This document shows positions 7,012 through 63,535 of a stretch of 64,000 bases of DNA, piece by piece. A program made the translations under genes and the position numbers. The notes beneath the pieces were generated by a model. That model ran no database searches and was not told the origin of the DNA. It saw only the letters and a program-made list of their open reading frames with translations. Within the stretch, counting starts at the first letter, position 1. Each line of letters begins with the position of its first letter. The stretch covers positions 37,565 to 101,564 of the forward strand of contig CASFNB010000001.1 in NCBI GenBank assembly GCA_949295915.1. Reading direction: 5' to 3'. The DNA is from an uncultured Pseudomonadota bacterium (GTDB lineage Bacteria; Pseudomonadota; Alphaproteobacteria; RF32; CAG-239).

Positions 7012-7566
7012 ATGAATAAAAAACTAAAAATAATTTTGGGATTAGTCATATTTTGTTCATCAATCCAAACCGGACAAGCCGCTAGTTTGGATGATATTTA
7101 TCGTGACATAGTGAGAGATGATAATAGCGGTTATCTCCCGATTTTTGTCAGAAACCGCAACCGTCCCGAATTATTATTTGAAGACAAATTACCCAAAGCA
7201 GAAACAAAAGCAGAGACGAAAAAGGAACAGCCGGTAGTTAAACTTCTGGATGAAAGAAAAATCAAGCAAGATGCCATCAAAGCGGAAGCTGAAAGATGGC
7301 AAAATGCCATCAAAGCCATTCAGGCAAATAAATTTACTGCTAAAGAACTAAAAATCTTGGACGAATATGTAGCCAAAGACGACCCCAAAGCCGTTGAAAT
7401 TAAAGCATGGATGCTGGCCAAAGGATACGGAGTTAAAACCAATTTAGTTGAATCTTTTTTACTTTATCGCAAGGCAGAAAAACTTGGTGTTAAAGATGCC
7501 AAAAAGAATGCGGCGCAAGTATACCGAGCCATGAACCGCGATCAAAGAGAAAGTCTGGCCAAATAA
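7012..7566 (+). CDS. Secreted Sel1-like repeat protein
   Basis: Signal peptide (MNKKLKIILGLVIFCSSIQTGQA). The C-terminal part has a Sel1/SLR-like pattern (AWMLAKGYGVKTNLVESFLLYRKAEKLG). Confidence 0.5.
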   Translation: MNKKLKIILGLVIFCSSIQTGQAASLDDIYRDIVRDDNSGYLPIFVRNRNRPELLFEDKLPKAETKAETKKEQPVVKLLDERKIKQDAIKAEAERWQNAIKAIQANKFTAKELKILDEYVAKDDPKAVEIKAWMLAKGYGVKTNLVESFLLYRKAEKLGVKDAKKNAAQVYRAMNRDQRESLAK

Positions 7567-11940: not shown

Positions 11941-11980
11941 TAAATAAATAATAATGGTCGATTATAAAAAATCGACCATT
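11941..11980 (-). terminator. Intrinsic terminator downstream of secB
   Basis: 10-bp stem AATGGTCGAT/ATCGACCATT with an 8-nt loop, followed on the minus strand by a U-rich tract. Confidence 0.6.
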
Positions 11981-11986
11981 ATAAAA

Positions 11987-12001
11987 AACAGTGTATTTAA
12001 A
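11987..12001 (+). repeat. One-mismatch copy of the 15-mer (AACAGTGTATTTAAA)
   Basis: Read directly. It lies between the secB stop codon and its terminator. Confidence 0.6.
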
Positions 12002-16764: not shown

Positions 16765-16929
16765 AATTCTTACCTTAAACATTTGATATATAAAAAAAAA
16801 CGGAGTTATTAACAGAATATTAACTTTTTGTGCATAACTATCTCGCTTTAATGTCCTTATACAATTTAATCCGCGTATTGCAAAATCCAAACTCAGAGTT
16901 ATATACAGGCACCAAAACTTATCCCTCCT

Positions 16930-16938
16930 TGTGGATAT
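16930..16938 (-). promoter_or_regulatory. DnaA-box-like 9-mer (ATATCCACA on minus strand)
   Basis: One mismatch to TTATCCACA. Confidence 0.35.
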
Positions 16939-17018
16939 TAAAAAAATCAAAAATTAAAGTTTTGAATCCGGTTATGGTGTTTATGAGGTTGAAAAAGAAT
17001 CCAAAAAGCTAAATTTTA

Positions 17019-17033
17019 TTAATCTTTTGTTAA
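17019..17033. promoter_or_regulatory. CtrA-type site TTAA-N7-TTAA
   Basis: TTAATCTTTTGTTAA read directly. Confidence 0.3.
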
Positions 17034-17056
17034 CGATTCGTTTTAAAACAAACATT

Positions 17057-17065
17057 TGTGGACAA
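17057..17065 (-). promoter_or_regulatory. DnaA-box-like 9-mer (TTGTCCACA on minus strand)
   Basis: One mismatch to TTATCCACA. Confidence 0.4.
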
Positions 17066-17081
17066 CTCTGTTTATGAAAAC

Positions 17082-17090
17082 TTATCCACA
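17082..17090 (+). promoter_or_regulatory. Consensus DnaA box TTATCCACA
   Basis: Exact 9-mer read directly. Confidence 0.5.
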
Positions 17091-17154
17091 AAACTCACAG
17101 AGATATACAAATAACTACAAAACTTTTTTAAATATTTTTAGCCCTGCGGGGCTG

Positions 17155-17169
17155 TTAATAAAAAATTAA
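17155..17169. promoter_or_regulatory. CtrA-type site TTAA-N7-TTAA
   Basis: TTAATAAAAAAATTAA read directly. Confidence 0.3.
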
Positions 17170-17238
17170 CTTAATTATTTAATATAATCTCGGCAGGTGA
17201 AAATATTTTTTTACATTCTTCTTCTTTGCCAAATATAA

Positions 17239-17267
17239 TTGACAAAAATGAAATAAAAGAATATATA
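17239..17267 (+). promoter_or_regulatory. Sigma70-like promoter candidate for rho
   Basis: TTGACA-N17-TATATA about 85 nt upstream of the rho ATG. Confidence 0.35.
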
Positions 17268-17352
17268 AAAAATTACCTACCGAACATATTTATTAAAAAT
17301 ACTTAATAAATTCTTTACAGCAGAAATTTATTCCCAAAAATTTAAGGTAAGC

Positions 17353-19486: not shown

Positions 19487-19508
19487 AACACCATAAGGAG
19501 ATATAAAA

Positions 19509-20852
19509 ATGACAAACCAAACCATTTATGCATTATCTACTGTTTACGGTAAGTCTGGTGTGGCAGTGATTCGTGTTTCTGGAGCCGAGGCATTAAAAGC
19601 CATTGAGCTGATGACGAATATTGACGTTAAGAACATCAAACCGCGCTATGCTTATTTTGCCAAGTTGCATAATTTGGATAAAACTGAGAACTTGGATGAA
19701 AGTTTGGTTTTGTATTTTAAGGCACCTAATTCTTTTACCGGAGAAGACATTGTTGAGTTTCAAACGCATGGTTCCAAAGCCGTGATTAGCTCGGTAATGA
19801 ATTGCCTGAGCCAAATTGAAGGTTTTAGAATGGCTGAGCCCGGTGAATATTCCAAACGTGCCTTTTACAATGGCAAAATGGATTTGACCGAAGCTGAAGG
19901 TTTAGCAGATTTGATTGATTCGGAAACATCTGAGCAACAAAAATACTCCATGCGCCAAATGGAAGGCGGATTAAAGAACTTATATGAAAATTGGCGTGCC
20001 GAGCTGGTTAAGATGTTAGCACACTTGGAAGCTTTTATTGATTTTCCCGATGAAGATATTCCATCTTCTGTTATTGATAACATGAATAACACTGTATTTA
20101 AACTTGAAAACGAGATAAACAGCCACTTGAACAGTGATTCAATCGGTGAGAGATTGCGTGAAGGTTTCAGGGTTGTGATAGTTGGCGCGCCCAATGCCGG
20201 AAAGTCAAGTTTATTAAATGCCATTGTTAAAAGAGATGCCGTAATTGTATCTGATATTGCCGGTACCACGCGTGATGCTATTGATGTTCATTTAGACTTG
20301 AACGGTTATCCGGTGATGTTTACCGATACGGCCGGTTTGCGTGAAACTGAAGAAGAAATTGAAAAAATGGGCATTGATATTGCTTATAGCAAAATTCATG
20401 ATGCCGATTTAGTTATTTGCTTGTTTGATGCTTCTGTAGACACTGTTCAAGTCTTTGATAAAATAAAAGATTCATTTAAAAACAAAGCTTTGTTTGTTGC
20501 AAATAAAAGTGATAAATTAACATCTGAACAATGTTCAGAATTAGAAAAATCTGGTTGTTTGGTTATATCAGCCAAGCAAAAACAAGGCGTTGATAAAGTT
20601 TTGCAAGCCATTTCAAAAAATATACAAGAACGCTTTACTTCAAACTCCAACCTTTTGATTACGCGAAGCCGATATAGAGAAGCTTTGCAAGATGTTCTGG
20701 AAAATCTGCAAAACTTTGGCTTTGATAAAGAAATTGAATTGACGGCTGAAGATGTTCGCCTTGCTGCCCGCGCTTTGGGTAAAATCACCGGAAGAATAGA
20801 AGTGGATGAGATTTTAGATAAAATCTTTGGCGATTTCTGCATCGGTAAATAA
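19509..20852 (+). CDS. mnmE: tRNA modification GTPase MnmE
   Basis: G-domain GAPNAGKSSLLN, DTAG, NKSD, and C-terminal FCIGK. Confidence 0.95.
   Translation: MTNQTIYALSTVYGKSGVAVIRVSGAEALKAIELMTNIDVKNIKPRYAYFAKLHNLDKTENLDESLVLYFKAPNSFTGEDIVEFQTHGSKAVISSVMNCLSQIEGFRMAEPGEYSKRAFYNGKMDLTEAEGLADLIDSETSEQQKYSMRQMEGGLKNLYENWRAELVKMLAHLEAFIDFPDEDIPSSVIDNMNNTVFKLENEINSHLNSDSIGERLREGFRVVIVGAPNAGKSSLLNAIVKRDAVIVSDIAGTTRDAIDVHLDLNGYPVMFTDTAGLRETEEEIEKMGIDIAYSKIHDADLVICLFDASVDTVQVFDKIKDSFKNKALFVANKSDKLTSEQCSELEKSGCLVISAKQKQGVDKVLQAISKNIQERFTSNSNLLITRSRYREALQDVLENLQNFGFDKEIELTAEDVRLAARALGKITGRIEVDEILDKIFGDFCIGK
20088..20102 (+). repeat. Exact copy of 15-mer AACACTGTATTTAAA
   Basis: Read directly. Inside mnmE (codons N-T-V-F-K). 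Confidence 0.9.
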
Positions 20853-20951
20853 TTGTCACATTTCTTTAAAATCTAAAAACTTGACTCTCTGCCTGTTTTA
20901 GCTTATAAAACAATCACTATCTTTTATTATTAACCTTTAAAGCATTATTTT

Positions 20952-21398
20952 ATGGAAAAAAGTTTTGAAAATTCAGTTTTTATCGAATTAAAAAATTACA
21001 AAGGTTTTGTCTTCAATCCTATGCGGATTTTTAATGTTTTGTATGACGAAAGTTCAGAAAACAGAACACCTGTGATAGAAGATATAATCCAGAGAGAAGC
21101 TTTTTTGGCATTTACTGACAAGTTGCATACATTCAGAAGCGGTGGTGCTTTTGAATCATTCACTGAGATAAGTTTTGTGAAGAATTCAAAAAGTAAAGAT
21201 TTGCAACAATTGTGTGAGTATTTTGCTGCAGTTGTTGACGATTTTAAGTCAACATACGACGAAGAAGATCCGTACTATTCATATAGTTACGCTGTCTTAC
21301 TTATTTCAATAATCACAGCAACGGGAGGCTACTTTCCAGATTCTTTATTATACAAGTTTGTGCATTTCTGTCGCAAGAATGCCATCCTCAAAATTTAA
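20952..21398 (+). CDS. Hypothetical protein (orphan, 148 aa)
   Basis: Only long ORF in the mnmE-mnmG gap and followed by a strong terminator. No recognisable motif. Confidence 0.45.
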   Translation: MEKSFENSVFIELKNYKGFVFNPMRIFNVLYDESSENRTPVIEDIIQREAFLAFTDKLHTFRSGGAFESFTEISFVKNSKSKDLQQLCEYFAAVVDDFKSTYDEEDPYYSYSYAVLLISIITATGGYFPDSLLYKFVHFCRKNAILKI

Positions 21399-21417
21399 AA
21401 CAGAGGTATATGGATTT

Positions 21418-21448
21418 AAAAGACTGTCTTTTGACAGTCTTTTTTTTA
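21418..21448 (+). terminator. Intrinsic terminator
   Basis: AAAGACTGTC-TTTT-GACAGTCTTT hairpin followed by a T-run. Confidence 0.65.
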
Positions 21449-21527
21449 TGCCTTTTATTGATTTCTAAATTTTTTTGATTATAATGCCGGCAAGAATTAA
21501 ATAAAATTTTTTAAGGCCTTATAAATA

Positions 21528-23375
21528 ATGAATAAAATTTACGATGTAATTGTAGTCGGTGGTGGACACGCCGGCTGCGAAGCCTGCGCGGCTGCTGCCA
21601 GAACCGGAGCCAAAACCGCTTTGGTAACTCACCATATTGATACCATTGGCGCCATGTCATGCAATCCGGCTATTGGTGGTTTGGGTAAAGGACATTTGGT
21701 CAGAGAGATTGATGCTCTTGATGGTTTGATGGGACGCGTGATTGATAAAGGCGGCATTCAATTCAGAATGTTGAATGCTTCCAAAGGTCCGGCCGTAAGA
21801 GGTCCTCGAGCCCAAGCAGACCGAGAATTATATAAAAAATACATGCTTGAGGCTTTGCAAGAACAAGATGATTTGGATATTATCGAAGCAACCGTTGAAG
21901 GTTTAATCATCAATGACAATCAAGTTGAAGGTATCATCTTAGCAAACGGAGATGAAATCAGAGCTAAAGCCACGGTTTTAACATCAGGCACCTTTTTAAA
22001 TGGTGTTATGTTTGTTGGACATCAAGCCACGGTTGGCGGTCGTATCGGTGAAGAAAGTTGCACCGGTATAACACCGTATTTAAAGCAATTAGGCTTAAAA
22101 GTCGGTCGTTTGAAAACCGGAACCCCTGCCCGTTTGAACGGCAAAACCATTCATTGGGAGAAGTTGGCGACACAAGACGGTGATAACCCGCCTGTTCCTT
22201 TTTCTTATTTAACGGATAAAATTACCAATCCGCAGATTCAATGTTATGTCACTCATACCAATGAAAGAACCCACAAAATCATTCGTGATAATTTTGACAA
22301 ATGTGCTTTATTTTCAGGTTTGATTACCGGTATCGGTCCGAGATATTGCCCGAGTATTGAAGATAAGTTGGTCAAGTTTGCCGATAGAACCAGCCACCAA
22401 ATTTTCTTGGAACCGGAAGGTTTGAACACCGATGTTGTTTATCCGAACGGCATTTCCACTTCTCTACCGGCAGATGTTCAAGATGCTTTCATTCATACTA
22501 TGGAAGGTTTGGAAGATGTTGAAATTTTGCGCTATGCCTATGCCATTGAATATGATTATGTTGATCCGCAAGAATTGGATAACAGATTAGCTGTTAAAAA
22601 AGTTCCCGGATTATTCTTGGCCGGACAAATTAACGGTACAACAGGCTATGAAGAAGCCGGAGCGCAAGGTTTGGTTGCCGGTGTCAATGCGGCTTTGTAT
22701 GCTGAAGGCAAAGGCCGAGAATTTGTTGTTGACAGAAGTGAAGCCTATATCGGCGTAATGATTGATGACTTAATCACCAAAGGTGTTGATGAACCGTATC
22801 GTATGTTCACTTCTCGTTCAGAATATCGTTTGTTCTTGCGTGCTGATAATGCCGATCGCCGTTTGACTGAAAAAGGTCATGAAATTGGTTGTGTCGGCGA
22901 ACATAGATACAGTGTATTTAAAGCTAAAAAAGAGCAAATCGAACATTATTCCGAACTCTGCCAAACTTTGCAAACAACCTACAAAGAGATTGATGCTTTG
23001 GGTTTGAATGTCAAACGTGACGGGACCAAAAGAACACCGTTTAACTTGATGAGTTATGAAGAAGTTTCACGTGAAACAATCAATAAACTCTTTCCTGAAT
23101 TAGCTGATATGCCGGATGTTGTTTATGAGGCAATCGAGATTGAAGCTCGCTATGCCGGATACATCAAACGCCAAATGGCGGATATTGAAGTTTTCAAAAA
23201 AGATGAAAATCTTAAATTGAAAGAAGATATTGATTATAGCAAAATTGGCGGCTTGTCACGAGAGATGGTTGCCAAGTTGAGCAAGGTCAAACCTTCAACT
23301 ATCGGTGAAGCTTCTCGTATCCCCGGCGTTACGCCGGCGGCAATAACCGCGATTTTGGGTTATGTAAAGAAATAA
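21528..23375 (+). CDS. mnmG: tRNA uridine 5-carboxymethylaminomethyl modification enzyme MnmG (GidA)
   Basis: FAD motif [19 protein letters not shown], 615 aa. Confidence 0.95.
22070..22084 (+). repeat. One-mismatch copy of the 15-mer (AACACCGTATTTAAA)
   Basis: Read directly. Inside mnmG (T-P-Y-L-K). Confidence 0.6.
23063..23078. promoter_or_regulatory. parS-like site AGTTTCACGTGAAACA (one mismatch)
   Basis: 15/16 match to the parS palindrome TGTTTCACGTGAAACA. Inside the 3' end of mnmG. Confidence 0.7.
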
Positions 23376-23377
23376 AT

Positions 23378-23392
23378 AACACTGTATTTAAA
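23378..23392 (+). repeat. Exact copy of 15-mer AACACTGTATTTAAA
   Basis: Read directly. It starts 3 nt after the mnmG stop and abuts the terminator stem. Confidence 0.9.
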
Positions 23393-23424
23393 GAGGCTAT
23401 GATAAAATTTAGCCTCTTTTTTTG
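23392..23424 (+). terminator. Intrinsic terminator after mnmG
   Basis: AGAGGCTA/TAGCCTCT stem followed by T7. Confidence 0.7.
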
Positions 23425-23492
23425 TGTCAGATTTACCAAAAATTAAAGAGCAGATTCTATAATAAAAAAACATTCTGAATATGGAGTCTGTA

Positions 23493-24911
23493 ATGAGTGA
23501 AAATTTCTTTATTCCTGATAGCTTGAAAGTCAACGGCGGAAATCCGATTTCGGGCGACATTAAAATCAGCGGGGCCAAGAACTCAATTTTGGGATTGATG
23601 GCTGCTTCTTTGTTGACCGATGATGTGGTAACGCTACGCAATGTTCCCTATATTACCGATGTTTTGGAAATGGGGCATATTATGCGTGATATTGGCGTTG
23701 ATGTACAATACAATCCGCAAAAAAGAATTTTGAAACTCCATGCAAGTAAAATCGTAAAAAATGAAATTTCGCACCAAGCCGCACATTTCAGAGCAAGTTA
23801 CTATCTTTGGGGATCACTGCTGGCACGTTTTTGCAGAACAAAAGAATTTAATAGTTTAAAAGTTTGCCTTCCTGGAGGATGTTCTTTTGGCGGAAAACGC
23901 CCCACAGACTTTCATGAAGAGTTGATAAAAACAGTTTTTGGCGCAACAATCAGTGTTGAAACCAAAGAAAATGAAAAATACTCCTATTTAAAGTTTCAAT
24001 TGCCTAAAAAAGAGAATAGTGAGCTATGTCCGGTTTACACAACATTTAAATCATCACATGGAGCAACGTTCCACTGGTTATTATCAGTTGCCGGTTCTGA
24101 TAATTGCAAAATGATGTATAACGCATCTTTAGAGCCGGAAGTTTCAAACCTGATTGCTATGTTACAAAAAATGGGTTTGGGCTTAATTGGCAACGAAAGA
24201 ACCGGTATCATTTATGATGGAAAAAACCGCAAATTATTGAAGGGGGTAGATTTTGAAGTTATCCCTGATAGATTAGAGGCAGCGACTTATGCTTTGCTCA
24301 CATTGTCAACCAAGGGGGCAGTTGAGTTGAATGGAATTAATTTTGAACATTGTTCTCCTTGGCTGGGACAGTTGGAAAGAATGTTCTCACGCGGAATTTA
24401 TTATTCAACCGACCGCAAAAAACTCTATTTGGATTTTAGAAAAGCCAAACCCTATGACGGTTTTATCATGCAAGTAACACCCTTCCCCGGATTTGAAACC
24501 GATTTACAACAAATCTGGACACCCATTTTGGCACAAGCCAAAACCGGTTCTGTTATTTCAGACTTAATTTGGCCCGGGCGCTCTGCTCATTTGGTGCAAA
24601 TGGCAAAATTTGGTTTACAAAGTAAGTTTTATCAATTTGATGTAAACAGCGGGCAACAAGGAAGTGTAAAAAACTTATATATCAATGTTGAGCCGTCTTC
24701 ATTTCATGCTGCCAAAGCTCAAGGTACGGATTTACGCGGAACCATGGCGACAATAATGCTGGCTGTCACGGCAAAAGGCGAAAGCATCATCGATAATCCG
24801 AGTTTTGCACTGCGAGGCTATCCAAATTTGTTAAAAAATTTACAAGACCTTGGTGTTGATATTTCTGCATCAACAGAAGGAAGAAAAATTCAAGCTTTAC
24901 CGGAGTTATAA
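23493..24911 (+). CDS. MurA-like enolpyruvyl transferase (EPT family), divergent, with insertion
   Basis: ISGAKNS (Lys22 equivalent), FRAS (Arg91), LPGGCSFGGKRPTDFH (Cys115 loop, Arg120), FETD (Asp305) and TDLRG (Arg397). Start chosen at the second Met (GGAG 8 nt upstream). The ORF track starts at 23481. Confidence 0.8.
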   Translation: MSENFFIPDSLKVNGGNPISGDIKISGAKNSILGLMAASLLTDDVVTLRNVPYITDVLEMGHIMRDIGVDVQYNPQKRILKLHASKIVKNEISHQAAHFRASYYLWGSLLARFCRTKEFNSLKVCLPGGCSFGGKRPTDFHEELIKTVFGATISVETKENEKYSYLKFQLPKKENSELCPVYTTFKSSHGATFHWLLSVAGSDNCKMMYNASLEPEVSNLIAMLQKMGLGLIGNERTGIIYDGKNRKLLKGVDFEVIPDRLEAATYALLTLSTKGAVELNGINFEHCSPWLGQLERMFSRGIYYSTDRKKLYLDFRKAKPYDGFIMQVTPFPGFETDLQQIWTPILAQAKTGSVISDLIWPGRSAHLVQMAKFGLQSKFYQFDVNSGQQGSVKNLYINVEPSSFHAAKAQGTDLRGTMATIMLAVTAKGESIIDNPSFALRGYPNLLKNLQDLGVDISASTEGRKIQALPEL

Positions 24912-25736
24912 ATGCAAAATTTTACCTTACATTGTCACACGCATGCACTTGATTGTTTTGATGGTCATAACGCGGCTGATGAAATGATTAGCCAAGCCGA
25001 AAAAATGGGCTTTGACGCAATCGGTATTTCCAATCATTTTTGCTATCACCCGAACATGATTTTGTGTAGTCCGATGTTTTTCAATGATGAAAACAAAGTC
25101 TTGGATGCGCATTTAAGAATTATTGATGAAGTAAGGTCAGCAGCTGTTGAACATAAAATCAAAGTTTATGTTGGCGCTGAGGTAGATTTCTTTCCTTCTG
25201 CCGTTTGGCGAAATGCTTTTGAACGTCTGATGAAAAAGCTCGATTTTGACTATTTGATAGGATCAAACCACTATATTCGCACGGCAGATGAATCGCAAAT
25301 TTATAACATTTATCACTTAGATTGCTTGCCCCCTAACCTCTCTGCCGAAGAGTTTAGAGAGTTAGTGCAACAACATTGGAATAACGTGGTTTACACGGTA
25401 GAAAGCGGCTATTTTGATTTTTTGGCACATCCCGATTATTGCGTGGTTAAAATTCCTGATGTTCCGGAATTTGAAGAAAACCGTTGGAAGATTATTGAAG
25501 CATTAGATAAAACAAAGATGCCGTTTGAAGTCAACACAAGTGGCTACAATCGTATAGATATGCAACATCCATGCGATTGGATGTTACAAGAACTTTGCAA
25601 AAGGAAGATACCAACATTGTTGAGCGATGATGCTCATTCAACCGCCATGATAGGACAGCATTTTGAAAGAGCTGAAAATCTGCTTCAAAAATTTGGCTGC
25701 AAAGAACGTTTGAATTTGGATTTTCTTCAGAAATAG
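24912..25736 (+). CDS. PHP-family phosphoesterase (HisJ/histidinol-phosphatase-like)
   Basis: HCHTH metal motif, GISNH, and downstream His/Asp motifs (LAHPDY, SDDAHS). Its ATG directly follows the MurA-like stop, so the two genes are translationally coupled. Confidence 0.8.
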   Translation: MQNFTLHCHTHALDCFDGHNAADEMISQAEKMGFDAIGISNHFCYHPNMILCSPMFFNDENKVLDAHLRIIDEVRSAAVEHKIKVYVGAEVDFFPSAVWRNAFERLMKKLDFDYLIGSNHYIRTADESQIYNIYHLDCLPPNLSAEEFRELVQQHWNNVVYTVESGYFDFLAHPDYCVVKIPDVPEFEENRWKIIEALDKTKMPFEVNTSGYNRIDMQHPCDWMLQELCKRKIPTLLSDDAHSTAMIGQHFERAENLLQKFGCKERLNLDFLQK

Positions 25737-25855
25737 ATTCAATGAATATGGTTTAAGTTTTTGTATTTAGATTCTTTTCTTTTTATTTTAAAATATGTGT
25801 TTATAACTGTTCTTTTTGTATTTTAAATTTTGCAAAAAAAATCTATAAATATTTT

Positions 25856-26482
25856 ATGCAAAATTTTATGGGAAAATACAATGTTTCACGTGAAACATTT
25901 GAACTGTTAAAAGCCTACGAAGCCAGCTTGGTTGAGTGGCAAAACAAGTTCAATCTGGTCAGCAACTCTTCTTTACAAGATTGCTGGAATCGTCATTTTG
26001 TTGACTCTGCACAGTTGTTTAAGTTTATTCCGGAAACCGCTAAAACCCTGCTGGATTTTGGTTCTGGGGCTGGCTTTCCGGCTATGGTAATTGCTATAAT
26101 GGCAAAGGAAAAAACACCGTATTTAAAAATAAGCTTGGTGGAAAGTATTGCTAAAAAAACACTGTATTTAAACGAGGTGAAAAAAATCTGCGGCCTTGAT
26201 GTTGAAATTTTGAACCAAAGAATCGAATCTTTGCCTAAAAAGAAAGTTGATGTCATCACTTCTCGTGCGATGGCATCTTTAAAAGAGTTGTTAAAATACA
26301 CGCAAGCTTTTTGCTCAGATAAAACTGTTTGCATCTTCCCCAAAGGCAAAAAATATGCCGAGGAGATAGAAGAAGCAAAAAAAGACTGGAATTTTGATTG
26401 TCAAGTTTTTGACAGTGAAACCAGTGATGAAGGAAAAATTTTGGTTATCAAACACATATTGAAGAAAAAGGGAGGTAAATAA
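25856..26482 (+). CDS. rsmG: 16S rRNA (guanine527-N7)-methyltransferase RsmG (GidB)
   Basis: SAM motif LDFGSGAGFPA and the typical NLVS...HFVDS N-terminal region. Confidence 0.9.
   Translation: MQNFMGKYNVSRETFELLKAYEASLVEWQNKFNLVSNSSLQDCWNRHFVDSAQLFKFIPETAKTLLDFGSGAGFPAMVIAIMAKEKTPYLKISLVESIAKKTLYLNEVKKICGLDVEILNQRIESLPKKKVDVITSRAMASLKELLKYTQAFCSDKTVCIFPKGKKYAEEIEEAKKDWNFDCQVFDSETSDEGKILVIKHILKKKGGK
25882..25897. promoter_or_regulatory. Consensus parS site TGTTTCACGTGAAACA
   Basis: Perfect 16-bp palindrome read directly, within the first codons of rsmG. Confidence 0.85.
26113..26127 (+). repeat. One-mismatch copy of the 15-mer (AACACCGTATTTAAA)
   Basis: Read directly. Inside rsmG, 45 nt upstream of an exact copy. 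Confidence 0.6.
26158..26172 (+). repeat. Exact copy of 15-mer AACACTGTATTTAAA
   Basis: Read directly. Inside rsmG (K-T-L-Y-L-N frame). Confidence 0.9.
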
Positions 26483-27262
26483 ATGCCAAGAGTAATTGCT
26501 ATTGCCAATCGAAAAGGCGGCGTGGGAAAAACCACAACCACCGTTAATGTTGCCACAGCCATGGCTGCTGCCGGTAAAAAAGTTTTGGTTATTGACTTGG
26601 ATCCGCAAGGCAACGCTTCCACTTCAATGGGTGTGAACAAACGCGGTCGCATGTCTTCTTCATATGAAGTTTTGATTGGTGAAGCAAAATTGTCTGAAGC
26701 AATCGTCTGGACGGAGATTCCAAATTTTTCAATCGTCCCCTCCTCTCCAGATTTGGCTGGTGCTGAAATCGAATTGGTCGATGTTGAAAAAAGAGAATTT
26801 CGCCTGAAGAATGCTCTTGCAGAACAAGCAGTCAATTATGACTATATTTTAATTGACTGCCCTCCTTCATTAAGTTTGATAACGATTAATGCTTTGGTTG
26901 CAGCAAATGCCGTCATTGTTCCGTTGCAATGTGAATTTTTGGCTTTGGAAGGTATTACCGATTTGATTCGCAACATCAATCAAATCAAAAAAATCTTCAA
27001 TCCCGATTTGGAATTGCAAGGCGTTGTTTTAACCATGTATGACAAAAGAAACAATTTGTCTCAACAAGTTGAAGATGATGTCAGACACTTCTTTGGTAAA
27101 AAAGTTTATCAAACCGTTATTCCGAGAAATGTTCGCATTTCGGAAGCTCCGTCACATGGCAAGCCTGTATTAATTTATGACTTTAAGTGCCCCGGAGCAC
27201 AAGCATATATCAGTTTAACCGGTGAAGTTTTGAAAAGAGAAAAGGAATTATTGGCATGTTAG
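26483..27262 (+). CDS. parA: Chromosome partitioning ATPase ParA
   Basis: Deviant Walker A NRKGGVGKTTT, 259 aa. Starts directly after the rsmG stop. Confidence 0.95.
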   Translation: MPRVIAIANRKGGVGKTTTTVNVATAMAAAGKKVLVIDLDPQGNASTSMGVNKRGRMSSSYEVLIGEAKLSEAIVWTEIPNFSIVPSSPDLAGAEIELVDVEKREFRLKNALAEQAVNYDYILIDCPPSLSLITINALVAANAVIVPLQCEFLALEGITDLIRNINQIKKIFNPDLELQGVVLTMYDKRNNLSQQVEDDVRHFFGKKVYQTVIPRNVRISEAPSHGKPVLIYDFKCPGAQAYISLTGEVLKREKELLAC

Positions 27263-28245
27263 AAGATAATAAGAAAAAAAGTTTGGGGCGCGGTTTGGGA
27301 GCGTTGCTCGGCGGAGATGATGTTGATTTAGATGTATTGATGGAAATGCCGGTTGAAAAACACCCAAGCGAAAATGTACAACCCCGTAATGTCAATACAA
27401 TTAATATAAATGATTTGCGCGCCGGAAAATATCAACCGCGTACCGAGTTTGATAAAGAAGCCTTAGACGCCTTGGTTGAATCCATCAAAGAAAAAGGAGT
27501 TTTGCAACCCCTTCTGGTTAGAAAACAAGGTGATAAATATGAGATTATTGCCGGTGAGCGTCGTTGGCGCGCAGCGAAAGAAGCCGGTTTAAAAGAAGTT
27601 CCTGTAATTGTTAAAGAATTTTCCGATCAAGAAGCCTTAGAAGTTGCTTTGGTTGAAAACTTGCTGCGCGAAAACTTAAGTGCCATTGAAGAAGCCGAAG
27701 GTTTACAGAGATTGATTACTGAGTTTTCTCACACACAAGAAGCCTTATCACAAATCGTCGGCAAATCCAGAAGTCATATTGCCAACACATTAAGATTGTT
27801 GAATTTGCCGCAAGAAATTCAAAATATGGTAAAAGAAAACAAACTTTCTGCCGGACACGCCAGAGCTTTGGTTGGCTTAGATAATGCCGTTGAGTTGGCT
27901 AAACAAATTATTGCCAAAGATCTGAACGTCCGTCAGGTTGAAGAACTGGTTGCAAAACAAAAAGAACCGAAAAAAGAAAAAGTTGTCGTAAAAAAAGACC
28001 AAGATTTAACCGATATTGAAAATGATCTAAATAAAGAACTCGGCTTAAGAATCAAAATTACACCGAGCAAAATGGGTGGTGGTAAAGTTGTGTTACAATA
28101 TGCCTCTCCTGCAGAGTTGGATATGATTATCGAGATTTTAGATAAAAGCAAAAAAAATATGAAAAATCAAAACTCGAACACTGTATTTAAATCAGAGCCT
28201 GTTGCTCAAAGCAACGAGAAATTTACAATTAAAGTGGTTGACTGA
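27256..28245 (+). CDS. parB: Chromosome partitioning protein ParB
   Basis: LGRGLGALLG, GERRWRAA box and an HTH segment. Carries a non-conserved C-terminal tail that contains a 15-mer copy. Confidence 0.95.
   Translation: MLEDNKKKSLGRGLGALLGGDDVDLDVLMEMPVEKHPSENVQPRNVNTININDLRAGKYQPRTEFDKEALDALVESIKEKGVLQPLLVRKQGDKYEIIAGERRWRAAKEAGLKEVPVIVKEFSDQEALEVALVENLLRENLSAIEEAEGLQRLITEFSHTQEALSQIVGKSRSHIANTLRLLNLPQEIQNMVKENKLSAGHARALVGLDNAVELAKQIIAKDLNVRQVEELVAKQKEPKKEKVVVKKDQDLTDIENDLNKELGLRIKITPSKMGGGKVVLQYASPAELDMIIEILDKSKKNMKNQNSNTVFKSEPVAQSNEKFTIKVVD
28177..28191 (+). repeat. Exact copy of 15-mer AACACTGTATTTAAA
   Basis: Read directly. Inside the parB C-terminal tail (N-T-V-F-K). Confidence 0.9.
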
Positions 28246-28556
28246 TGTTTTTGATAAAATATTTCATCATAGCTTTAATTGTCATCGGCACCTTTGTTGC
28301 CGGTTCATTGGGAATAGGAGGAGAAGACTGGCTTGCCAAAATCGGCTGGGCGCTGTTTTTTATAATCGGTTTTCTCATTCTGAATTTTATTGCCAAAATT
28401 GCATGGCGGATATTATTTTTAATTTTGAGTGTGTTTTTTATGATTTATTTGTTGAGCTATTTTGAAATAATAGAGTTCAGCTTGCCGGGAATAAATCATG
28501 CCACGCAAGAATTGATAGAAGATGTAGATATTAGAAAAGGTCTTACCGAAAAGTAA
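28245..28556 (+). CDS. Small membrane protein (3 TMs), paralogous to the N-terminus of the next gene
   Basis: 103 aa. FFIIGFLILNFIAKIAWRILFLIL resembles FILFLIGLVVLYIFVKMAWRAMGCL in the downstream nuclease. Confidence 0.5.
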   Translation: MFLIKYFIIALIVIGTFVAGSLGIGGEDWLAKIGWALFFIIGFLILNFIAKIAWRILFLILSVFFMIYLLSYFEIIEFSLPGINHATQELIEDVDIRKGLTEK

Positions 28557-28566: not shown

Positions 28567-28653
28567 AATTAAATTCGGTAACCATATATTTACTAAAGCA
28601 GAATATAAATGTAATATTCAATAGAAGTTACAAAAAAGATGTAGGTGAAGAAA

Positions 28654-29643
28654 ATGGGCTTTCTGAAAAAAATTTTAACGGCATTAGGTGCTTTTCTCCT
28701 TATTTTTTGGGGCGGAGCCGGAACACAAAGCAAAAGTTTGATGATGCAAGGCGGCGGATTTATACTTTTCTTAATCGGCTTGGTTGTTTTATACATCTTT
28801 GTAAAAATGGCATGGCGTGCCATGGGGTGTTTGCCGTCGTTTTTAATTTTTGCCGGTATAATAACCTTCATTGTCTATGCAATCGGCGGCTTTAATAATG
28901 GTATTAACGGGGTTATTCCGACATTAAAATCTTTTTTGGGGCAAAGTGACAAGCAAGCAGCTCCGTCGATGATGGTCTTAACGGAAGAAGAAATAGATGG
29001 CTTGGATGCTTCGGAAGAGGGAATGATAGATGGTGCCGAACTAAATGATGTTCCGCAATTACGACAACCGACACCACACGCCCAAACCGCAAAAACATTT
29101 GAACAAGTTTTACAAAACTTTGGCGGTAAAAAACAACAAGCCCAGCGCCCAGCAAGCCCGCAAGATTATCCGTCAATAATCGGACCTGTTCGCGTTGTAA
29201 ACGGCGATACTTTGATGATGGAAGGTCGGTATATTCGTCTGTTTGCCATCGATGCTCCGGAAGCCGACCAAACATGCGCCAACAAAATGGGCAGAGCTTA
29301 TCATTGTGGTCGCGTAGCTGCCACTTGGTTGCGTGATTGGCTGATGGATAATCCGGTAGAATGCCACATCATGCAACAAGATAAAAAAGGCAATATGATG
29401 GGCGTTTGCTCCTTAGGGCAATATGATATCGGCGCAGCATTGGTTAATGCCGGTTGGGCAATTGCCTACACCAAATACTCGGATGTATATGTTCCTTATC
29501 AAGAGCAAGCAATGAGCCGCCGAGATGGTTTGTGGCAAGGAAAATTCTATAGTCCGGAAGATTGGCGTAAAATGAAAGCCAGAAAACCAAATATCAAAAT
29601 CACCAAGCCTAAAAAAGAGCGCAAAAGCATGCTTAACTTTTAG
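28654..29643 (+). CDS. Membrane-anchored thermonuclease (SNase) family protein
   Basis: N-terminal TM module plus C-terminal SNase-like domain (VVNGDTLMMEGRYIRLFAIDAPE...GLWQG). ATG at 28654 is preferred (AGGTGA 6 nt upstream). The ORF track uses GTG at 28645. Confidence 0.8.
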   Translation: MGFLKKILTALGAFLLIFWGGAGTQSKSLMMQGGGFILFLIGLVVLYIFVKMAWRAMGCLPSFLIFAGIITFIVYAIGGFNNGINGVIPTLKSFLGQSDKQAAPSMMVLTEEEIDGLDASEEGMIDGAELNDVPQLRQPTPHAQTAKTFEQVLQNFGGKKQQAQRPASPQDYPSIIGPVRVVNGDTLMMEGRYIRLFAIDAPEADQTCANKMGRAYHCGRVAATWLRDWLMDNPVECHIMQQDKKGNMMGVCSLGQYDIGAALVNAGWAIAYTKYSDVYVPYQEQAMSRRDGLWQGKFYSPEDWRKMKARKPNIKITKPKKERKSMLNF

Positions 29644-37752: not shown

Positions 37753-37850
37753 AAAAAAGGTGGAGGACATATAGCCTTGATTAAAATCGTTACGGCTGCT
37801 TCCTTCCGGACCTGACCGGGTTGGCGACAAATCAACCCAACGTCCTCCTT
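37753..37850 (-). ncRNA. ffs: Signal recognition particle RNA (4.5S type)
   Basis: The minus strand reads GGAGGAC...CCGGUCAGGUCCGGAAGGAAGCAGCC...GUCCUCC followed by U6. This contains the universally conserved SRP domain IV motif. The 5'/3' ends pair. It lies directly upstream of dnaX, as in many bacteria. Confidence 0.85.
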
Positions 37851-37913
37851 TGGGTAATATTGCCGAAAACTAAAGAGATTTCAAGCAATATTTCAATTTT
37901 CAGACAAGAATTT

Positions 37914-54051: not shown

Positions 54052-56808
54052 ATGACAAAAACGGTTTGTTTGGTAGACGGCTCGGGCTATATTTTCAGAG
54101 CTTTTTACGGTATTCCCAATTTAACCGCGCCGGATGGCAAGCCGGTTAATGCCGTTTACGGTTTTACCAATATGTTTTTGCGTTTAACGCAGAATATCCC
54201 ATGTGATTATTCTTTGGTTTTGTTTGATGCCAAAAGGCAAAATTTCCGCAACGATTTTTTTCCCGAATACAAAGGCACCAGAAAAGAGATTCCCGAAGAG
54301 CTGATTCCCCAATTTCCGATAATAAGAGAAGCCGTCAAGGCTTTGAACTTGAACCAACTCGAGATGGAAGGCTATGAGGCGGATGATTTGATAGCCACTT
54401 ATGCCGACCAAGCTTTGAATAAAGGCTATGAAGTGGTGGTGGTTTCCGCCGATAAAGATTTAATGCAGCTGATTCGCCCCGGCGTTCGCTTTTATGATCC
54501 GATGAAAGATAAGTTCTTTACTCCCGAAGATGTGAAGGAAAAATTCGGTGTTTATCCCGATAAAGTAGTCGATGTTCAGGCTTTAGCCGGAGATAGCATT
54601 GATAATGTCCCCGGCGTTCCCGGAATTGGTTTGAAAACCGCGGCGCAATTGGTGAATGAGTTTGGCTCTTTGCAAGAAGTGTTAGACCGCGCCGGAGAAA
54701 TCAAGCAAAACAAAAGACGTGAAACCTTGCTTGAAAATAGAGAAAATGCGCTCATTTCTTTGCAACTCGTCACTTTGAAAAAAGATGTTCCGGTCGAAAA
54801 AGAGATAGAGGCTTATGCCTGCCATAAACCGGTGTTTGAAGAGATAGAAAAGTTTGTTGATTTATATGGATTTTTGAGCTTAAAACCACGTTTGCAACGC
54901 TGGGCAGAGGTTAGATGCAATAGTCTGCCGGATGAGGAAAATCAAGACCTGAACACTGTATTTAAAGAGGTGGAAAAGCACTATGAGTTGGTGCAAGATG
55001 AGCAAAGCTTAATGCGCTGGGCGGATATGATAAAAAACAAGGGCGCCTTTGCTTTTGATACCGAAACCACCGGCATTGACCCCACTTTTGATAAAATCGT
55101 CGGCTTTTCCATGGCGGTAGAAGAGGGCGTTGCTTGCTATGTGCCTTTGACGCATAAACCCCAAAATCGTGATTTGTTTGCTTTGGAAAGCGATGAGATT
55201 AAACAGCTTGATTTTGCCACCGTTGCCAAACATTTAGCCCCGATCATGACCGATAAGAGCATTTTGAAAATCGGGCAGAATATCAAGTTTGATATGCACT
55301 TCTTTGCTCAAGTGATTGGCGAAGATAAAGAAATTTTTCCGATTGAAGATACGGCAGTGCTGTCTTATGACTTGGATAGCTCCGAGCACGGACACGGCAT
55401 GGATGAACTGGCAGAAAAGTTTTTGTCTTATAAAACCATTCATTATGAAGATGTTTGCGGCACCGGCAAAGATAAAATCACCTTTGACTATGTGCCTTTG
55501 GACAAGGCTTTGGACTATGCCGCCGAAGATGCCGACATCACCTTGCGTTTGTATAATGTTTTGAAACCAAGATTGATAAAAGAGAAAAAAATTGCCGTTT
55601 ATGAGAACTATGACCGCCCGTTGATTGCCCTTTTGCAAAAAATGGAAAAACAAGGCGTGATGGTTGATAAACAAAAGCTTATGAGTTTAAGCCAAGAGTT
55701 TGATAAAAAATTGAAGGAATATGAGCAAGAAATTTATCAACTTGCCGGAGAAGAATTTAATATCGGCTCACCCAAGCAAATCGGCGAAATTTTGTTTGGT
55801 AAACTCGGTGCTAAGGGCAAAAAAACCGCAACCGGAGCCTGGCAAACCGGAGCCGATGTTTTGGAAAATCTGGCTGCCGAGGGCAATTTGCTTGCCGCCA
55901 AAATTTTAGATTGGCGCGGTTTCAGCAAACTCAAATCCACTTATACCGATGCTTTGATTAATTTGCTGGATAAAGACAGCCGTTTGCATACCACTTTTAA
56001 CCAAACCGTGGTCAATACCGGTCGTTTGGCATCTTCTAACCCCAATTTGCAAAATATTCCGATTAGGAGTGACGAAGGCAAAAAAATCCGAGAGTGCTTT
56101 ATTGCTAAAGAAGGCTGTAAGATAATTGCTTCCGACTATTCGCAGGTTGAGTTGCGCTTGCTCGCTTCTGTTGCCGATGTTAAGGGCTTGAAACACGCTT
56201 TTGATCAAGGCATAGATATTCACGCCGCCACGGCAGCAAAAGTTTTCGGTGTGCCTTATGATGAGGTGGATTCCAATATGCGCCGCCATGCCAAGGCGAT
56301 TAATTTCGGCATTGTTTACGGCATTTCACAATATGGTTTGGCCAAACAAATTGATGTCAGCAATGAAGAGGCTAAGAAATATATTGATGCTTATTTTGCC
56401 CAAATGCCCGAGATTAAAAAATATATGGAACAAACCACCATGTTTGCCCATCAATACGGCTATGTGATGACACCATTTGGGCGCAAATGTTCAATTATGG
56501 GCATTAATGATAAAAACAAACGCATTGTTGCCAATGCCGAAAGAGCCGCCATCAATGCGCCGATTCAAGGCGGTGCGGCAGATATCATTAAACGCGCGAT
56601 GATTGCCGTGCAAAGAGAGCTGGAAGAGGGCGGATATAAGACCAAAATGCTCTTGCAAGTGCATGATGAGTTGGTTTTTGAGGCACCGTTAGACGAGTTG
56701 GAAAAAGCCGCCGCGATGATAAAAAAGACCATGGAAGGCGTGGTGGATTTAGCCGTACCTTTTGTGGCTGAAGTCGGTATCGGCGATGACTGGACTCAAG
56801 CGCACTAG
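54052..56808 (+). CDS. polA: DNA polymerase I
   Basis: 5'-nuclease domain (LVDGSGYIFRAFY), 3'-5' exo domain (FAFDTETTG) and polymerase motifs (DYSQVELR, QVHDELV). Confidence 0.95.
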   Translation: MTKTVCLVDGSGYIFRAFYGIPNLTAPDGKPVNAVYGFTNMFLRLTQNIPCDYSLVLFDAKRQNFRNDFFPEYKGTRKEIPEELIPQFPIIREAVKALNLNQLEMEGYEADDLIATYADQALNKGYEVVVVSADKDLMQLIRPGVRFYDPMKDKFFTPEDVKEKFGVYPDKVVDVQALAGDSIDNVPGVPGIGLKTAAQLVNEFGSLQEVLDRAGEIKQNKRRETLLENRENALISLQLVTLKKDVPVEKEIEAYACHKPVFEEIEKFVDLYGFLSLKPRLQRWAEVRCNSLPDEENQDLNTVFKEVEKHYELVQDEQSLMRWADMIKNKGAFAFDTETTGIDPTFDKIVGFSMAVEEGVACYVPLTHKPQNRDLFALESDEIKQLDFATVAKHLAPIMTDKSILKIGQNIKFDMHFFAQVIGEDKEIFPIEDTAVLSYDLDSSEHGHGMDELAEKFLSYKTIHYEDVCGTGKDKITFDYVPLDKALDYAAEDADITLRLYNVLKPRLIKEKKIAVYENYDRPLIALLQKMEKQGVMVDKQKLMSLSQEFDKKLKEYEQEIYQLAGEEFNIGSPKQIGEILFGKLGAKGKKTATGAWQTGADVLENLAAEGNLLAAKILDWRGFSKLKSTYTDALINLLDKDSRLHTTFNQTVVNTGRLASSNPNLQNIPIRSDEGKKIRECFIAKEGCKIIASDYSQVELRLLASVADVKGLKHAFDQGIDIHAATAAKVFGVPYDEVDSNMRRHAKAINFGIVYGISQYGLAKQIDVSNEEAKKYIDAYFAQMPEIKKYMEQTTMFAHQYGYVMTPFGRKCSIMGINDKNKRIVANAERAAINAPIQGGAADIIKRAMIAVQRELEEGGYKTKMLLQVHDELVFEAPLDELEKAAAMIKKTMEGVVDLAVPFVAEVGIGDDWTQAH
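54952..54966 (+). repeat. Exact copy of 15-mer AACACTGTATTTAAA
   Basis: Read directly. Inside the polA interdomain linker (N-T-V-F-K). Confidence 0.9.
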
Positions 56809-62905: not shown

Positions 62906-63535
62906 ATGCCAAATATTTTGCTGTTGTCGGATAATGAAGATTTTGCTGCAGATTTAAGCGAACAAATCACGCTTTATGCGCATGGTTTTAATGTCCTGCC
63001 GCAAGATGATGAAAACAGCTTGATAGATATGATAATTTTGGATGAAAAAGCCAAAGATTTAGAAACTTTGCGCGCGCATCACCCCAACACGCCGATAATT
63101 TTGCTGCAACAAAGCGGGGATGATTCGGTTGAGAGTTCTGTTTTAAATCATGTTATTTTCAAGCCTTTGTCTTTGGAAAGTTTGTTGAACCAAATCCAAG
63201 CCGGTATCAATTTGGTAGATAATTCCGAAGCCGGATATTTGAACTTTAATCGTTATGAGTTGCACCCTTTGCAAAAAGAAATCTATAATGAGAGAAACGG
63301 TGAAACCATTAAGTTGACGGAAAAAGAAGTGGCAATCATCAAATTTCTATATAAAAACAAAGATAAAATTGTTTCTAAGAATGATTTGTTGCAAGAAGTT
63401 TGGGGTTATAGTCCCGATGTCAGCACCCATACCATAGAAACTCATATTTATCGCCTGCGCCAAAAGGTGGAACATGAAGACACTTCCGCACAACTGATTG
63501 TCACCGAAGACGGCGGATATAAATTGGTATTATAA
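62906..63535 (+). CDS. OmpR/PhoB-type winged-helix regulator with atypical receiver domain
   Basis: C-terminal Trans_reg_C (LTEKEVAIIKFLY...VWGY...TIETHIYRLRQK). In the receiver, the acceptor Asp (IILD) and KP are kept, but there is a DN in place of DD and a Q in place of the conserved T/S. Confidence 0.7.
   Translation: MPNILLLSDNEDFAADLSEQITLYAHGFNVLPQDDENSLIDMIILDEKAKDLETLRAHHPNTPIILLQQSGDDSVESSVLNHVIFKPLSLESLLNQIQAGINLVDNSEAGYLNFNRYELHPLQKEIYNERNGETIKLTEKEVAIIKFLYKNKDKIVSKNDLLQEVWGYSPDVSTHTIETHIYRLRQKVEHEDTSAQLIVTEDGGYKLVL

Follow-up and report, generated by a model that had tools for sequence, protein, structure and literature searches.

What is the role of a 15-base DNA word that recurs, always in the same direction, beside a bacterial replication origin? 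This question is raised by a stretch of 64 kb (the window, that is, the whole stretch of DNA analysed here) from an uncultured alphaproteobacterium of animal guts, whose ParB gene is found identically in ENA and Logan metagenome assemblies. The word AACACTGTATTTAAA is present there in five exact copies (starts 20088, 23378, 26158, 28177 and 54952), three copies with one mismatch (11987, 22070 and 26113) and one copy with two mismatches (22908), all of them at the places given by the original prediction, which had been made from the letters of this DNA alone. As judged from sequence comparisons, the word is a DNA site that acts in cis and is confined to a single clade of uncultured Alphaproteobacteria from gut and rumen. 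The reading that we favour, tentatively, is that its copies are the sites of a predicted sequence-specific protein, which would mark or organise the centromere-proximal origin domain in a polar way.

A short, co-oriented word clustered beside the origin

Up to two mismatches, the nine copies of the window are all carried by the + strand and none by the - strand, in agreement with the single direction first noticed (one-strand bias, 9/9, P = 0.004). Nine such matches are observed against a mean of 0.41 in dinucleotide shuffles of the window, and the five exact copies against 0.0001-0.0006 predicted by Markov models of order 0-4, which puts them, as had been estimated by hand, far beyond chance. 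No other 11- to 15-mer is repeated as often in the window as AACACTGTATTTAAA, and an independent repeat finder ranks the word as its top direct-repeat family. The flanks of the copies are unrelated, with a weak A/T preference 2-6 nt upstream as the sole extension, so that the view of a short word rather than a longer mobile element holds, and a mobile repeat (repetitive extragenic palindrome, miniature inverted-repeat transposable element or insertion sequence end) is rejected.

Seven of the nine copies lie inside 8.1 kb (scan statistic, P ~6e-4), around two parS sites and near the probable replication origin (oriC). Their positions relative to oriC are -5.1, +3.0, +5.0, +5.8, +6.3, +9.0, +9.05, +11.1 and +37.9 kb. 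The copies, the parS sites and oriC are arranged as follows.

11987-12001, + strand: site AACAGTGTATTTAAA, between the secB stop (12002, - strand) and the secB terminator hairpin, antisense to secB
16829-17352 (about 16.83-17.3 kb), no strand assigned: probable oriC, with DnaA boxes, a CtrA-type box, an AT-rich stretch and the GC-skew minimum
20088-20102, + strand: site in mnmE, amino acids (aa) 194-198, N-T-V-F-K, frame 0
22070-22084, + strand: site AACACCGTATTTAAA in mnmG, frame 1, T-P-Y-L-K
22908-22922, + strand: site TACAGTGTATTTAAA in mnmG, frame 0, Y-S-V-F-K, 155 bp ahead of parS-1
23063-23078, no strand assigned: parS-1 AGTTTCACGTGAAACA, inside mnmG, 1 mismatch
23378-23392, + strand: intergenic site, 3 nt past the mnmG stop, followed by a terminator hairpin
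25882-25897, no strand assigned: parS-2 TGTTTCACGTGAAACA, at the 5' end of rsmG, exact
26113-26127, + strand: site AACACCGTATTTAAA in rsmG, frame 1
26158-26172, + strand: site in rsmG, frame 1, K-T-L-Y-L-N, 276 bp past parS-2
28177-28191, + strand: site in the parB C-terminal tail, aa 308-312 (the dimerisation domain ends at aa 295)
54952-54966, + strand: site in the polA linker, aa 301-305, between the 5'-nuclease and 3'-5' exonuclease domains

The gene labels used from the start are supported by Pfam, which recognises MnmE, MnmG/GidA, RsmG/GidB, ParB and PolA. The probable oriC sits between coaE and rho and coincides with the cumulative GC-skew minimum; it contains four DnaA boxes (16829-17090) and, beside them, a perfect CtrA-type box TTAA-N7-TTAAC, TTAATAAAAAATTAAC, near 17157 (17150-17175). 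Both parS positions are kept in other species of the clade, where parS is likewise intragenic. The mnmE site at 20088 falls in the helical domain, immediately N-terminal of the G domain. The site at 11987, 5 kb left of oriC, has the same sequence in 10 strains of the species; the neighbouring secB terminator hairpin (11951-11982) is flipped whole among strains, its loop reading either TTTTATA or ATAAAAA.

Conservation of the word at the DNA level

The word was followed through about 30 related species, which are metagenome-assembled genomes (MAGs) labelled only 'Alphaproteobacteria bacterium' and which come from human, deer, goat and other gut samples (their loci carry L numbers below). A consensus was built by anchoring on GTATTTAAA in clade loci, to which loci found only via Rho or PolA similarity were added. 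It refines the word to AAC-N3-GTATTTAAA (AAC-NNN-GTATTTAAA), 15 bases of which the 12 outer ones (positions 1-3 and 7-15) are essentially invariant, while positions 4-6 vary (ACT, ACC, AGT, GGT, GCT, GTT, AAT, GAT or GCC). The palindromic core ACA(C/G)TGT proposed at first is therefore not the conserved unit, as its centre is free; AC-N3-GT and the following ATTTAAA are indeed fixed.

Copies of the word recur at orthologous places: in the middle and at the stop of mnmE, at two places in mnmG and at its stop, at two places in rsmG, in ParB tails and in the polA linker. For five of these places, with 4-10 loci compared at each, the 12 outer bases show 100% identity, when the third-codon positions flanking those same sites are just 34-51% identical, and the word is retained in host genomes of 27-49% G+C. 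The mnmE-middle site has an ortholog in 11 species, with outer blocks 100% identical (the L251 copy belongs to this set and not to that of the mnmG site 22070). The latter has kept its 15-mer unchanged at the corresponding place in the 7 species whose sequence covers it (31-45% G+C). The mnmG site 22908 is found in five loci, always as TAC-N3-GTATTTAAA; two of these loci, L102 and L333, show no difference over the 105 nt compared and could come from a single species. The word supplies the stop codon in L100 and stands directly behind the mnmE and mnmG stops in others; in L334 it lies 5 nt past the mnmG stop, comparable to the window copy at 23378. In rsmG, the site 26158 is found in 7 species and the pair 26113 and 26158, with its 45-bp spacing, recurs in L040, L065, L116, L102 and L333. 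In parB, the C-tail site is at the same place in L084, L102 and L333, and the ParB N-terminal linker carries the word instead in L042, L069 and L114: its place shifts between species, yet a copy stays. The ParB tail of the window extends for about 35 aa past the dimerisation domain (...NTVFK...EKFTIKVVD, 28141-28245).

When read in frame 0, the word gives N-x-V-F-K, x changing with the central codon, and in frame 1 it gives T-x-Y-L-K/N. Copies inside proteins fall in tolerant segments, such as the linker between two domains of polA and, in ParB, either the N-linker or the C-tail. At the polA linker position, N-x-V-F-K is found in 106 of 120 PolA homologues (73-100% identity), within a stretch that is otherwise hypervariable; in two species chosen by PolA protein similarity alone, the linker DNA is AACGCTGTATTTAAA (AACGCT...) and AACGTTGTATTTAAA (AACGTT...GTATTTAAA). 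N-x-V-F-K is nevertheless rejected as a protein motif, as frame-1 and intergenic copies exist. Because the outer bases are identical amid randomised flanks, in two frames as well as between genes and across 27-49% G+C, the comparison shows purifying selection on the word as a DNA element and not as a peptide, of which this is a textbook footprint.

A by-product of coding, through a shared peptide and codon usage, or plain chance could account for a few isolated hits that look like coding coincidences: the PBP1A glycosyltransferase motif T-L-Y-L-N in L071, and Y-Q-T-L-Y-L-K and N-G-V-F-K in DnaE (L077 and L114). As an explanation of the family, its probability is negligible. It is effectively refuted for the cluster copies, whose chance expectation is below 0.001, which use two frames and intergenic places, which keep the same bases at synonymous positions amid randomised flanks, and whose central-codon amino acid changes when the outer bases do not.

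Distribution in the clade and outside

A scan of reference genomes for the exact word, with one genome per species, gave at least 120 matches. Among the matches listed, about 28 are gut alphaproteobacterial MAGs of different species, the rest being single chance hits across all phyla. Twenty of these 28 clade loci fall in regions orthologous to the window (tblastn with window proteins), namely mnmE, the rsmG-parAB stretch, the parB end and the polA neighbourhood, so that the clustering by parS and oriC noticed in the window extends to the clade. The Rho-anchored loci have 14-18 strict sites within 10 kb on the right side of the origin. In four further Rho-anchored genomes (two of them near-identical), 4-6 strict copies each are found in the 10 kb right of oriC, in gene direction, and no strict copy was seen in the 10 kb left of oriC of the same Rho-anchored loci.

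In the species of the window, about 78 kb around oriC contain exactly the nine copies described, the sequence added on the left (10 kb) and on the right (4 kb) bringing no further copy even with one outer-block mismatch. Thus 8 kb contain seven copies, and the remaining ~70 kb examined contain two. Within the 8-10 kb stretch there is about 1 copy per 1.2 kb, and elsewhere roughly 1 per 30-100 kb; the surroundings of polA in two other species contain exactly one copy per ~22 kb, and the mnmE-parB stretch is roughly a hundred-fold denser in the word than other clade DNA examined. Outside the clade, 79 other alphaproteobacterial rho/origin loci (855 kb, from a Rho-based scan of Joint Genome Institute (JGI) metagenomes) contain zero sites, even though they include very AT-rich marine lineages, some of 28-32% G+C; the sole clade member in this JGI set has two copies. 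Between genomes that have the word and sister lineages that lack it, the boundary in Rho identity falls between about 81% and 90%. The word family is thus restricted to the clade and low in copy number, and it is concentrated around the two parS sites, 3-11 kb right of oriC.

This distribution bears on whether the word could be a signal for uptake, transfer or recombination, USS/DUS-like (uptake signal sequence or DNA uptake sequence), pac- or oriT-like, or a hotspot, which would favour the exchange of origin-proximal core genes. The likeness to the USS/DUS of Haemophilus and Neisseria is real: the word is embedded in coding sequences in several frames, in tolerant protein segments, just behind stops and next to terminators, at conserved orthologous places, often in genome-maintenance genes, and it is clade-specific like DUS dialects. 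Accommodation of USS/DUS in genome-maintenance genes was itself reportedly described by Davidsen et al. in 2004. A genome with USS/DUS has hundreds to thousands of them, spaced at about one per kb all around the chromosome on either strand, and their intergenic copies are often inverted pairs forming terminators. The word, by contrast, is dense only within 8-10 kb, rare outside in the clade DNA examined and in one orientation, and no inverted pair of it was found in the origin regions examined. A genome-wide uptake sequence, one of the roles first proposed, is contradicted by these features and rejected.

Strain variation also enters into this question. The segments 19491-22716, 23327-24641 and 26002-26884 differ by 2-10% among strains that are ~100% identical elsewhere, while 22717-23326, which contains the site 22908 and parS-1, has zero single-nucleotide polymorphisms in 9 strains. 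That this mosaic is located exactly here, with a block at 19.5-22.7 kb of 6-10% divergence among otherwise near-identical strains, would suit a recombination signal, but no significant association links the block edges to word sites. Finally, a scan of viral contigs gave chance singletons only and no phage with a word array, which leaves a phage promoter or pac origin of the word unsupported. Altogether, an uptake, transfer or recombination signal is very unlikely.

Orientation and the case for a polar signal

In every species examined, the strict copies of the origin region share one absolute orientation. This is true of all 9 in the window, of the 6 in L333, of the 5 found in L102 and again in L056, and of the 4 that L072, L114, L331 and L334 each carry. 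Intragenic copies of the cluster all lie on the sense strand and run in the direction of replication. This orientation is not imposed by coding, since the antisense frames (F-K-Y-x-V or L-N-T-x) would be equally codable. Two copies break the sense-strand rule, the one at 11987, antisense to secB, and L072:958, which is antisense inside a DUF4340 gene and yet co-oriented with the cluster. The copy at 11987 also breaks the leading-strand rule, as it lies, according to GC skew, on the other replichore while pointing in the same direction; this is a single, well-conserved site. The orientation of the word thus follows neither gene strand nor replichore strictly.

One explanation of such an orientation would be a polar signal for a travelling machine (replisome, RNA polymerase, or translocase/nuclease), confined to the first kb of the right arm. 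It could take the form of a Ter-like barrier or pause, of an ops-like element of the non-template strand recruiting a NusG paralogue, or of a KOPS- or Chi-like word. The asymmetry of the site, its strictly one-way arrangement across the region in every species and the sense, replication-co-directional intragenic copies are all in its favour; from inspection of the sequence, AC-N3-GT could in addition fold, once single-stranded, into a mini-hairpin of 2 bp whose loop would contain the variable bases. We nevertheless consider it unlikely, because the copies at 11987 and L072:958 do not behave as a signal read by a machine moving along genes or replichores should, and because each of its forms meets its own difficulty.

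KOPS and Chi are words of 5-8 nt, very frequent genome-wide, when the word has 12 specified bases and is low-copy. A genome-wide polar word of this type, also among the roles first suggested, is contradicted by copy number, by length and by the left-of-origin copy, which does not flip strand, and is rejected. A skewed word following the replichores is likewise rejected for want of a strand flip at oriC, a conclusion that depends on the single left copy at 11987. Ter sites occupy the terminus half in two opposed groups, and a Tus-Ter fork trap is rejected for a word located 3-11 kb from oriC in one orientation. Tus-Ter and ops/RfaH do resemble the word in being asymmetric sites of 12-23 bp whose orientation matters, and ops shares its fixed-variable-fixed layout; ops elements are, however, found in the 5' leaders of operons and not repeatedly inside coding regions, the sequences of both are unrelated to the word, and its left-of-origin and antisense copies break the rules of both.

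A possible regulatory element or integration target

The word could alternatively be a regulatory element of the set of genes in which it is found (mnmE, mnmG, rsmG, parAB and polA, in some species ccrM, trmB and dnaE), either as an mRNA motif for a protein or small RNA, or as the DNA site, operator or internal promoter element, on which a monomeric transcription factor would act. The genes repeatedly hit are indeed replication, segregation or RNA-modification genes, the cluster copies are on the sense strand, and several stand just upstream of the next gene (at the mnmE stop ahead of the next open reading frame (ORF), at the mnmG stop ahead of aroA, inside rsmG ahead of parA, and in the parB tail ahead of the next gene). 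This possibility is nonetheless quite unlikely. The mid-gene copies (mnmE middle, first mnmG site and polA linker) are 0.8-1.9 kb away from any downstream start, antisense copies exist, and operator sites do not usually have 12 bases out of 12 invariant. The flanks show neither a conserved -35-like block nor any other conservation: a sigma-70 promoter (-35/-10, spaced by 16-18 bp) is rejected, as no column outside the 15-mer is conserved in 66 aligned sites, and a promoter scan of the window does not single out the word sites. As to RNA, the central transversions are not wobble-compatible, no word complementary to the motif is present in the window, and an Rfam scan of the window finds no known RNA family at the word sites. 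Its sole match in the window is a small signal recognition particle RNA (37756-37851, - strand).

A last alternative is that a site-specific recombination or integration system uses the word as its target or for crossover, and would in this way create the variable gene slots of the region. Slots beside copies do hold unrelated genes in different species. Between mnmE and mnmG, the window has a 148-aa ORF (20952-21398), hypervariable and without Pfam match, whose protein is only 60-70% identical between strains with 100% identical ParB; elsewhere, this slot contains a GNAT gene (L056), a 109-aa ORF (L334) or nothing. The slot behind mnmG is empty in the window (23375-23481) and contains an HDOD/HD protein in L331 (15501-16127) and L333, or a NUDIX protein in L334 (18622-19191). 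The GNAT gene inserted in L056 has direct copies on both sides, at 6500/6531 and at 7096. Against this, most copies are in the middle of an essential gene with no insertion nearby, the variable ORF of the window is not bracketed by copies, and no recombinase is linked to the sites; such a target is scarcely likely. The region also contains a PHP-domain gene, inserted together with aroA between mnmG and rsmG, which is single in the window (24912-25736), doubled in L333 (16857-18504) and L102, and present as four tandem paralogues in L331 (17630-20951) and L332.

Comparison with known site families

The closest likeness is to parS/ParB (ParABS review, PMC7333895). Like parS, the word is a short, high-information site, nearly invariant across species, of which a few copies are clustered within ~10 kb of oriC, many of them inside housekeeping genes at conserved positions; here, both are found inside mnmG and rsmG. 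parS is however a 16-bp palindrome, TGTTNCACGTGAAACA, and is orientation-free, whereas the word is asymmetric and co-oriented and shares no block with it. The word is thus not parS, and true parS sites are present separately. In E. coli, the maoS/MaoP system of the Ori macrodomain uses a short site near oriC that acts in cis on the organisation of the origin domain, by an unknown mechanism (PMC5441646). The word resembles maoS as a short DNA site close to oriC and independent of coding. It is found, however, in a different bacterial class and has an unrelated sequence: maoS is one 17-bp site beside its own gene in enterobacteria, when the word has 5-9 co-oriented copies per origin region and no partner gene was found for it.

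Other site families have a chromosomal distribution that, rather than their neighbour genes, carries their meaning, as is also the case of the word. These are ram of RacA, NBS of Noc, SBS of SlmA and matS of MatP, reportedly the subjects of work by Ben-Yehuda et al. in 2005, Wu et al. in 2009 and Mercier et al. in 2008; ram sites are origin-proximal. The word shares with them the restriction to one chromosomal region, but their sites are inverted repeats for dimers, in either orientation, with tens of copies over hundreds of kb, whereas it is asymmetric and one-way, with most copies within ~10 kb. It is not a palindromic dimer site: its only self-complementary sub-blocks are AC-N3-GT and TTTAAA, and the 15-mer is overall asymmetric and strand-specific.

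Neither the DnaA box (TTATCCACA-like 9-mer) nor the CtrA box (TTAA-N7-TTAA) gives an acceptable alignment to the word, canonical boxes of both being present separately in oriC. An informal check by eye gave no convincing match to DnaA, CtrA, IHF, LexA, NrdR, marbox, Ter and ops sites, nor to T7/SP6 promoters, HUH nick sites and type I/IIB restriction sites. A literature search found, in the library searched, neither the word nor its sub-words, in line with the statement that no described motif matches it, and no oriented or non-palindromic origin-proximal motif. We classify the word as a regionally restricted chromosomal site family, which fails the defining features of each named family and is unrelated to them in sequence.

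A putative binding protein and a proposed polar origin domain

Among the three roles put forward in the original prediction, that of an origin-proximal family of binding sites fits best; that a protein binds the word, and that the word serves the origin or centromere, we infer from sequence. This reading is based on the fixed-free-fixed layout, on an invariance and a positional conservation that are parS-like, and on the restriction to the parS-bearing flank of oriC. Invariant blocks around a free 3-bp centre are typical of protein-DNA contacts and not of continuous base pairing. The putative DNA-binding protein would contact the duplex through two blocks, AAC and then, three bases on, GTATTTAAA. 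Once bound, it could mark or organise the centromere-proximal origin domain, following the same logic as parS/ParB, ram/RacA or maoS/MaoP. As the site is asymmetric and all copies of the region are co-oriented, the complexes are probably assembled or read with polarity, which could mean head-to-tail stacking, bridging of parallel sites, or a face relevant to passing machinery.

A more specific form of this proposal, possible though doubtful, is that the array is a second, ParB-independent centromere or origin-domain element, to which a clade-specific protein would bind head-to-tail, giving the first ~10-40 kb a direction. Such a built-in direction could serve segregation, polar anchoring, or the directional loading of a translocating complex.

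Several points weigh against the idea of a protein marking the origin domain. A minority of clade copies lie elsewhere in the genomes, so that the family is not exclusive to the origin region. In L055 (3338-3384, - strand), three tandem copies with 13- and 19-bp spacing follow immediately on the stop codon of a gene of 218 aa, where they overlap the end of the convergent trkA, and there is an HU gene nearby; two other copies are at the 3' end of a CcrM-type methylase gene (ccrM), one is in trmB, and antisense copies are found in rsmB and in an efflux gene. The copy numbers of the clade are, moreover, counts on pieces of 8-22 kb. To our knowledge, known origin and centromere site families are palindromic and orientation-free, and a purely architectural role has no obvious need for one orientation.

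In addition, no candidate binder was found among the genes near the sites, which encode ordinary or membrane proteins. The ORFs between mnmE and mnmG are not conserved across species. A 103-aa ORF (28245-28556), which overlaps the parB stop, was rejected as a partner since it appears to be species-specific. The staphylococcal-nuclease-like gene directly after parB (28645-29643) is conserved in the clade and was rejected as its product is membrane-anchored, with an N-terminal anchor region of ~100 aa. Also rejected were an OmpR-type regulator, as its gene adjoins a porin gene and has no site nearby, and the conserved genes at 477-2940, whose products resemble tetratricopeptide repeat or coiled-coil membrane proteins. 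The OmpR-type gene (62906-63535) encodes a 209-aa protein with a winged-helix domain and without recognisable receiver domain, and its synteny with the porin gene is kept in L347, L349 and L350.

Significance

Region-specific site families (parS, matS, ram, NBS, SBS and maoS) are the main handles on the organisation and segregation of bacterial chromosomes. The origin-proximal families known to us are all symmetric or single-copy. The family described here is of high information, asymmetric and strictly co-oriented, with 12 bases fixed inside essential genes across 27-49% G+C, and points to a previously undescribed chromosome signal. Such selection would imply that an as yet undescribed protein, perhaps together with a directional principle, acts at the centromere region of an uncultured but widespread lineage of gut and rumen. 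If the co-oriented array proved to be a ParB-independent centromere or origin-domain element, bacteria would offer in it a first described case of an origin-proximal site family with an orientation, and it could be categorically new if its orientation encodes a directional mechanism. The word could in any case provide a precise bait for DNA pull-down or DNA affinity purification sequencing (DAP-seq), as well as a marker of the clade in metagenomes.

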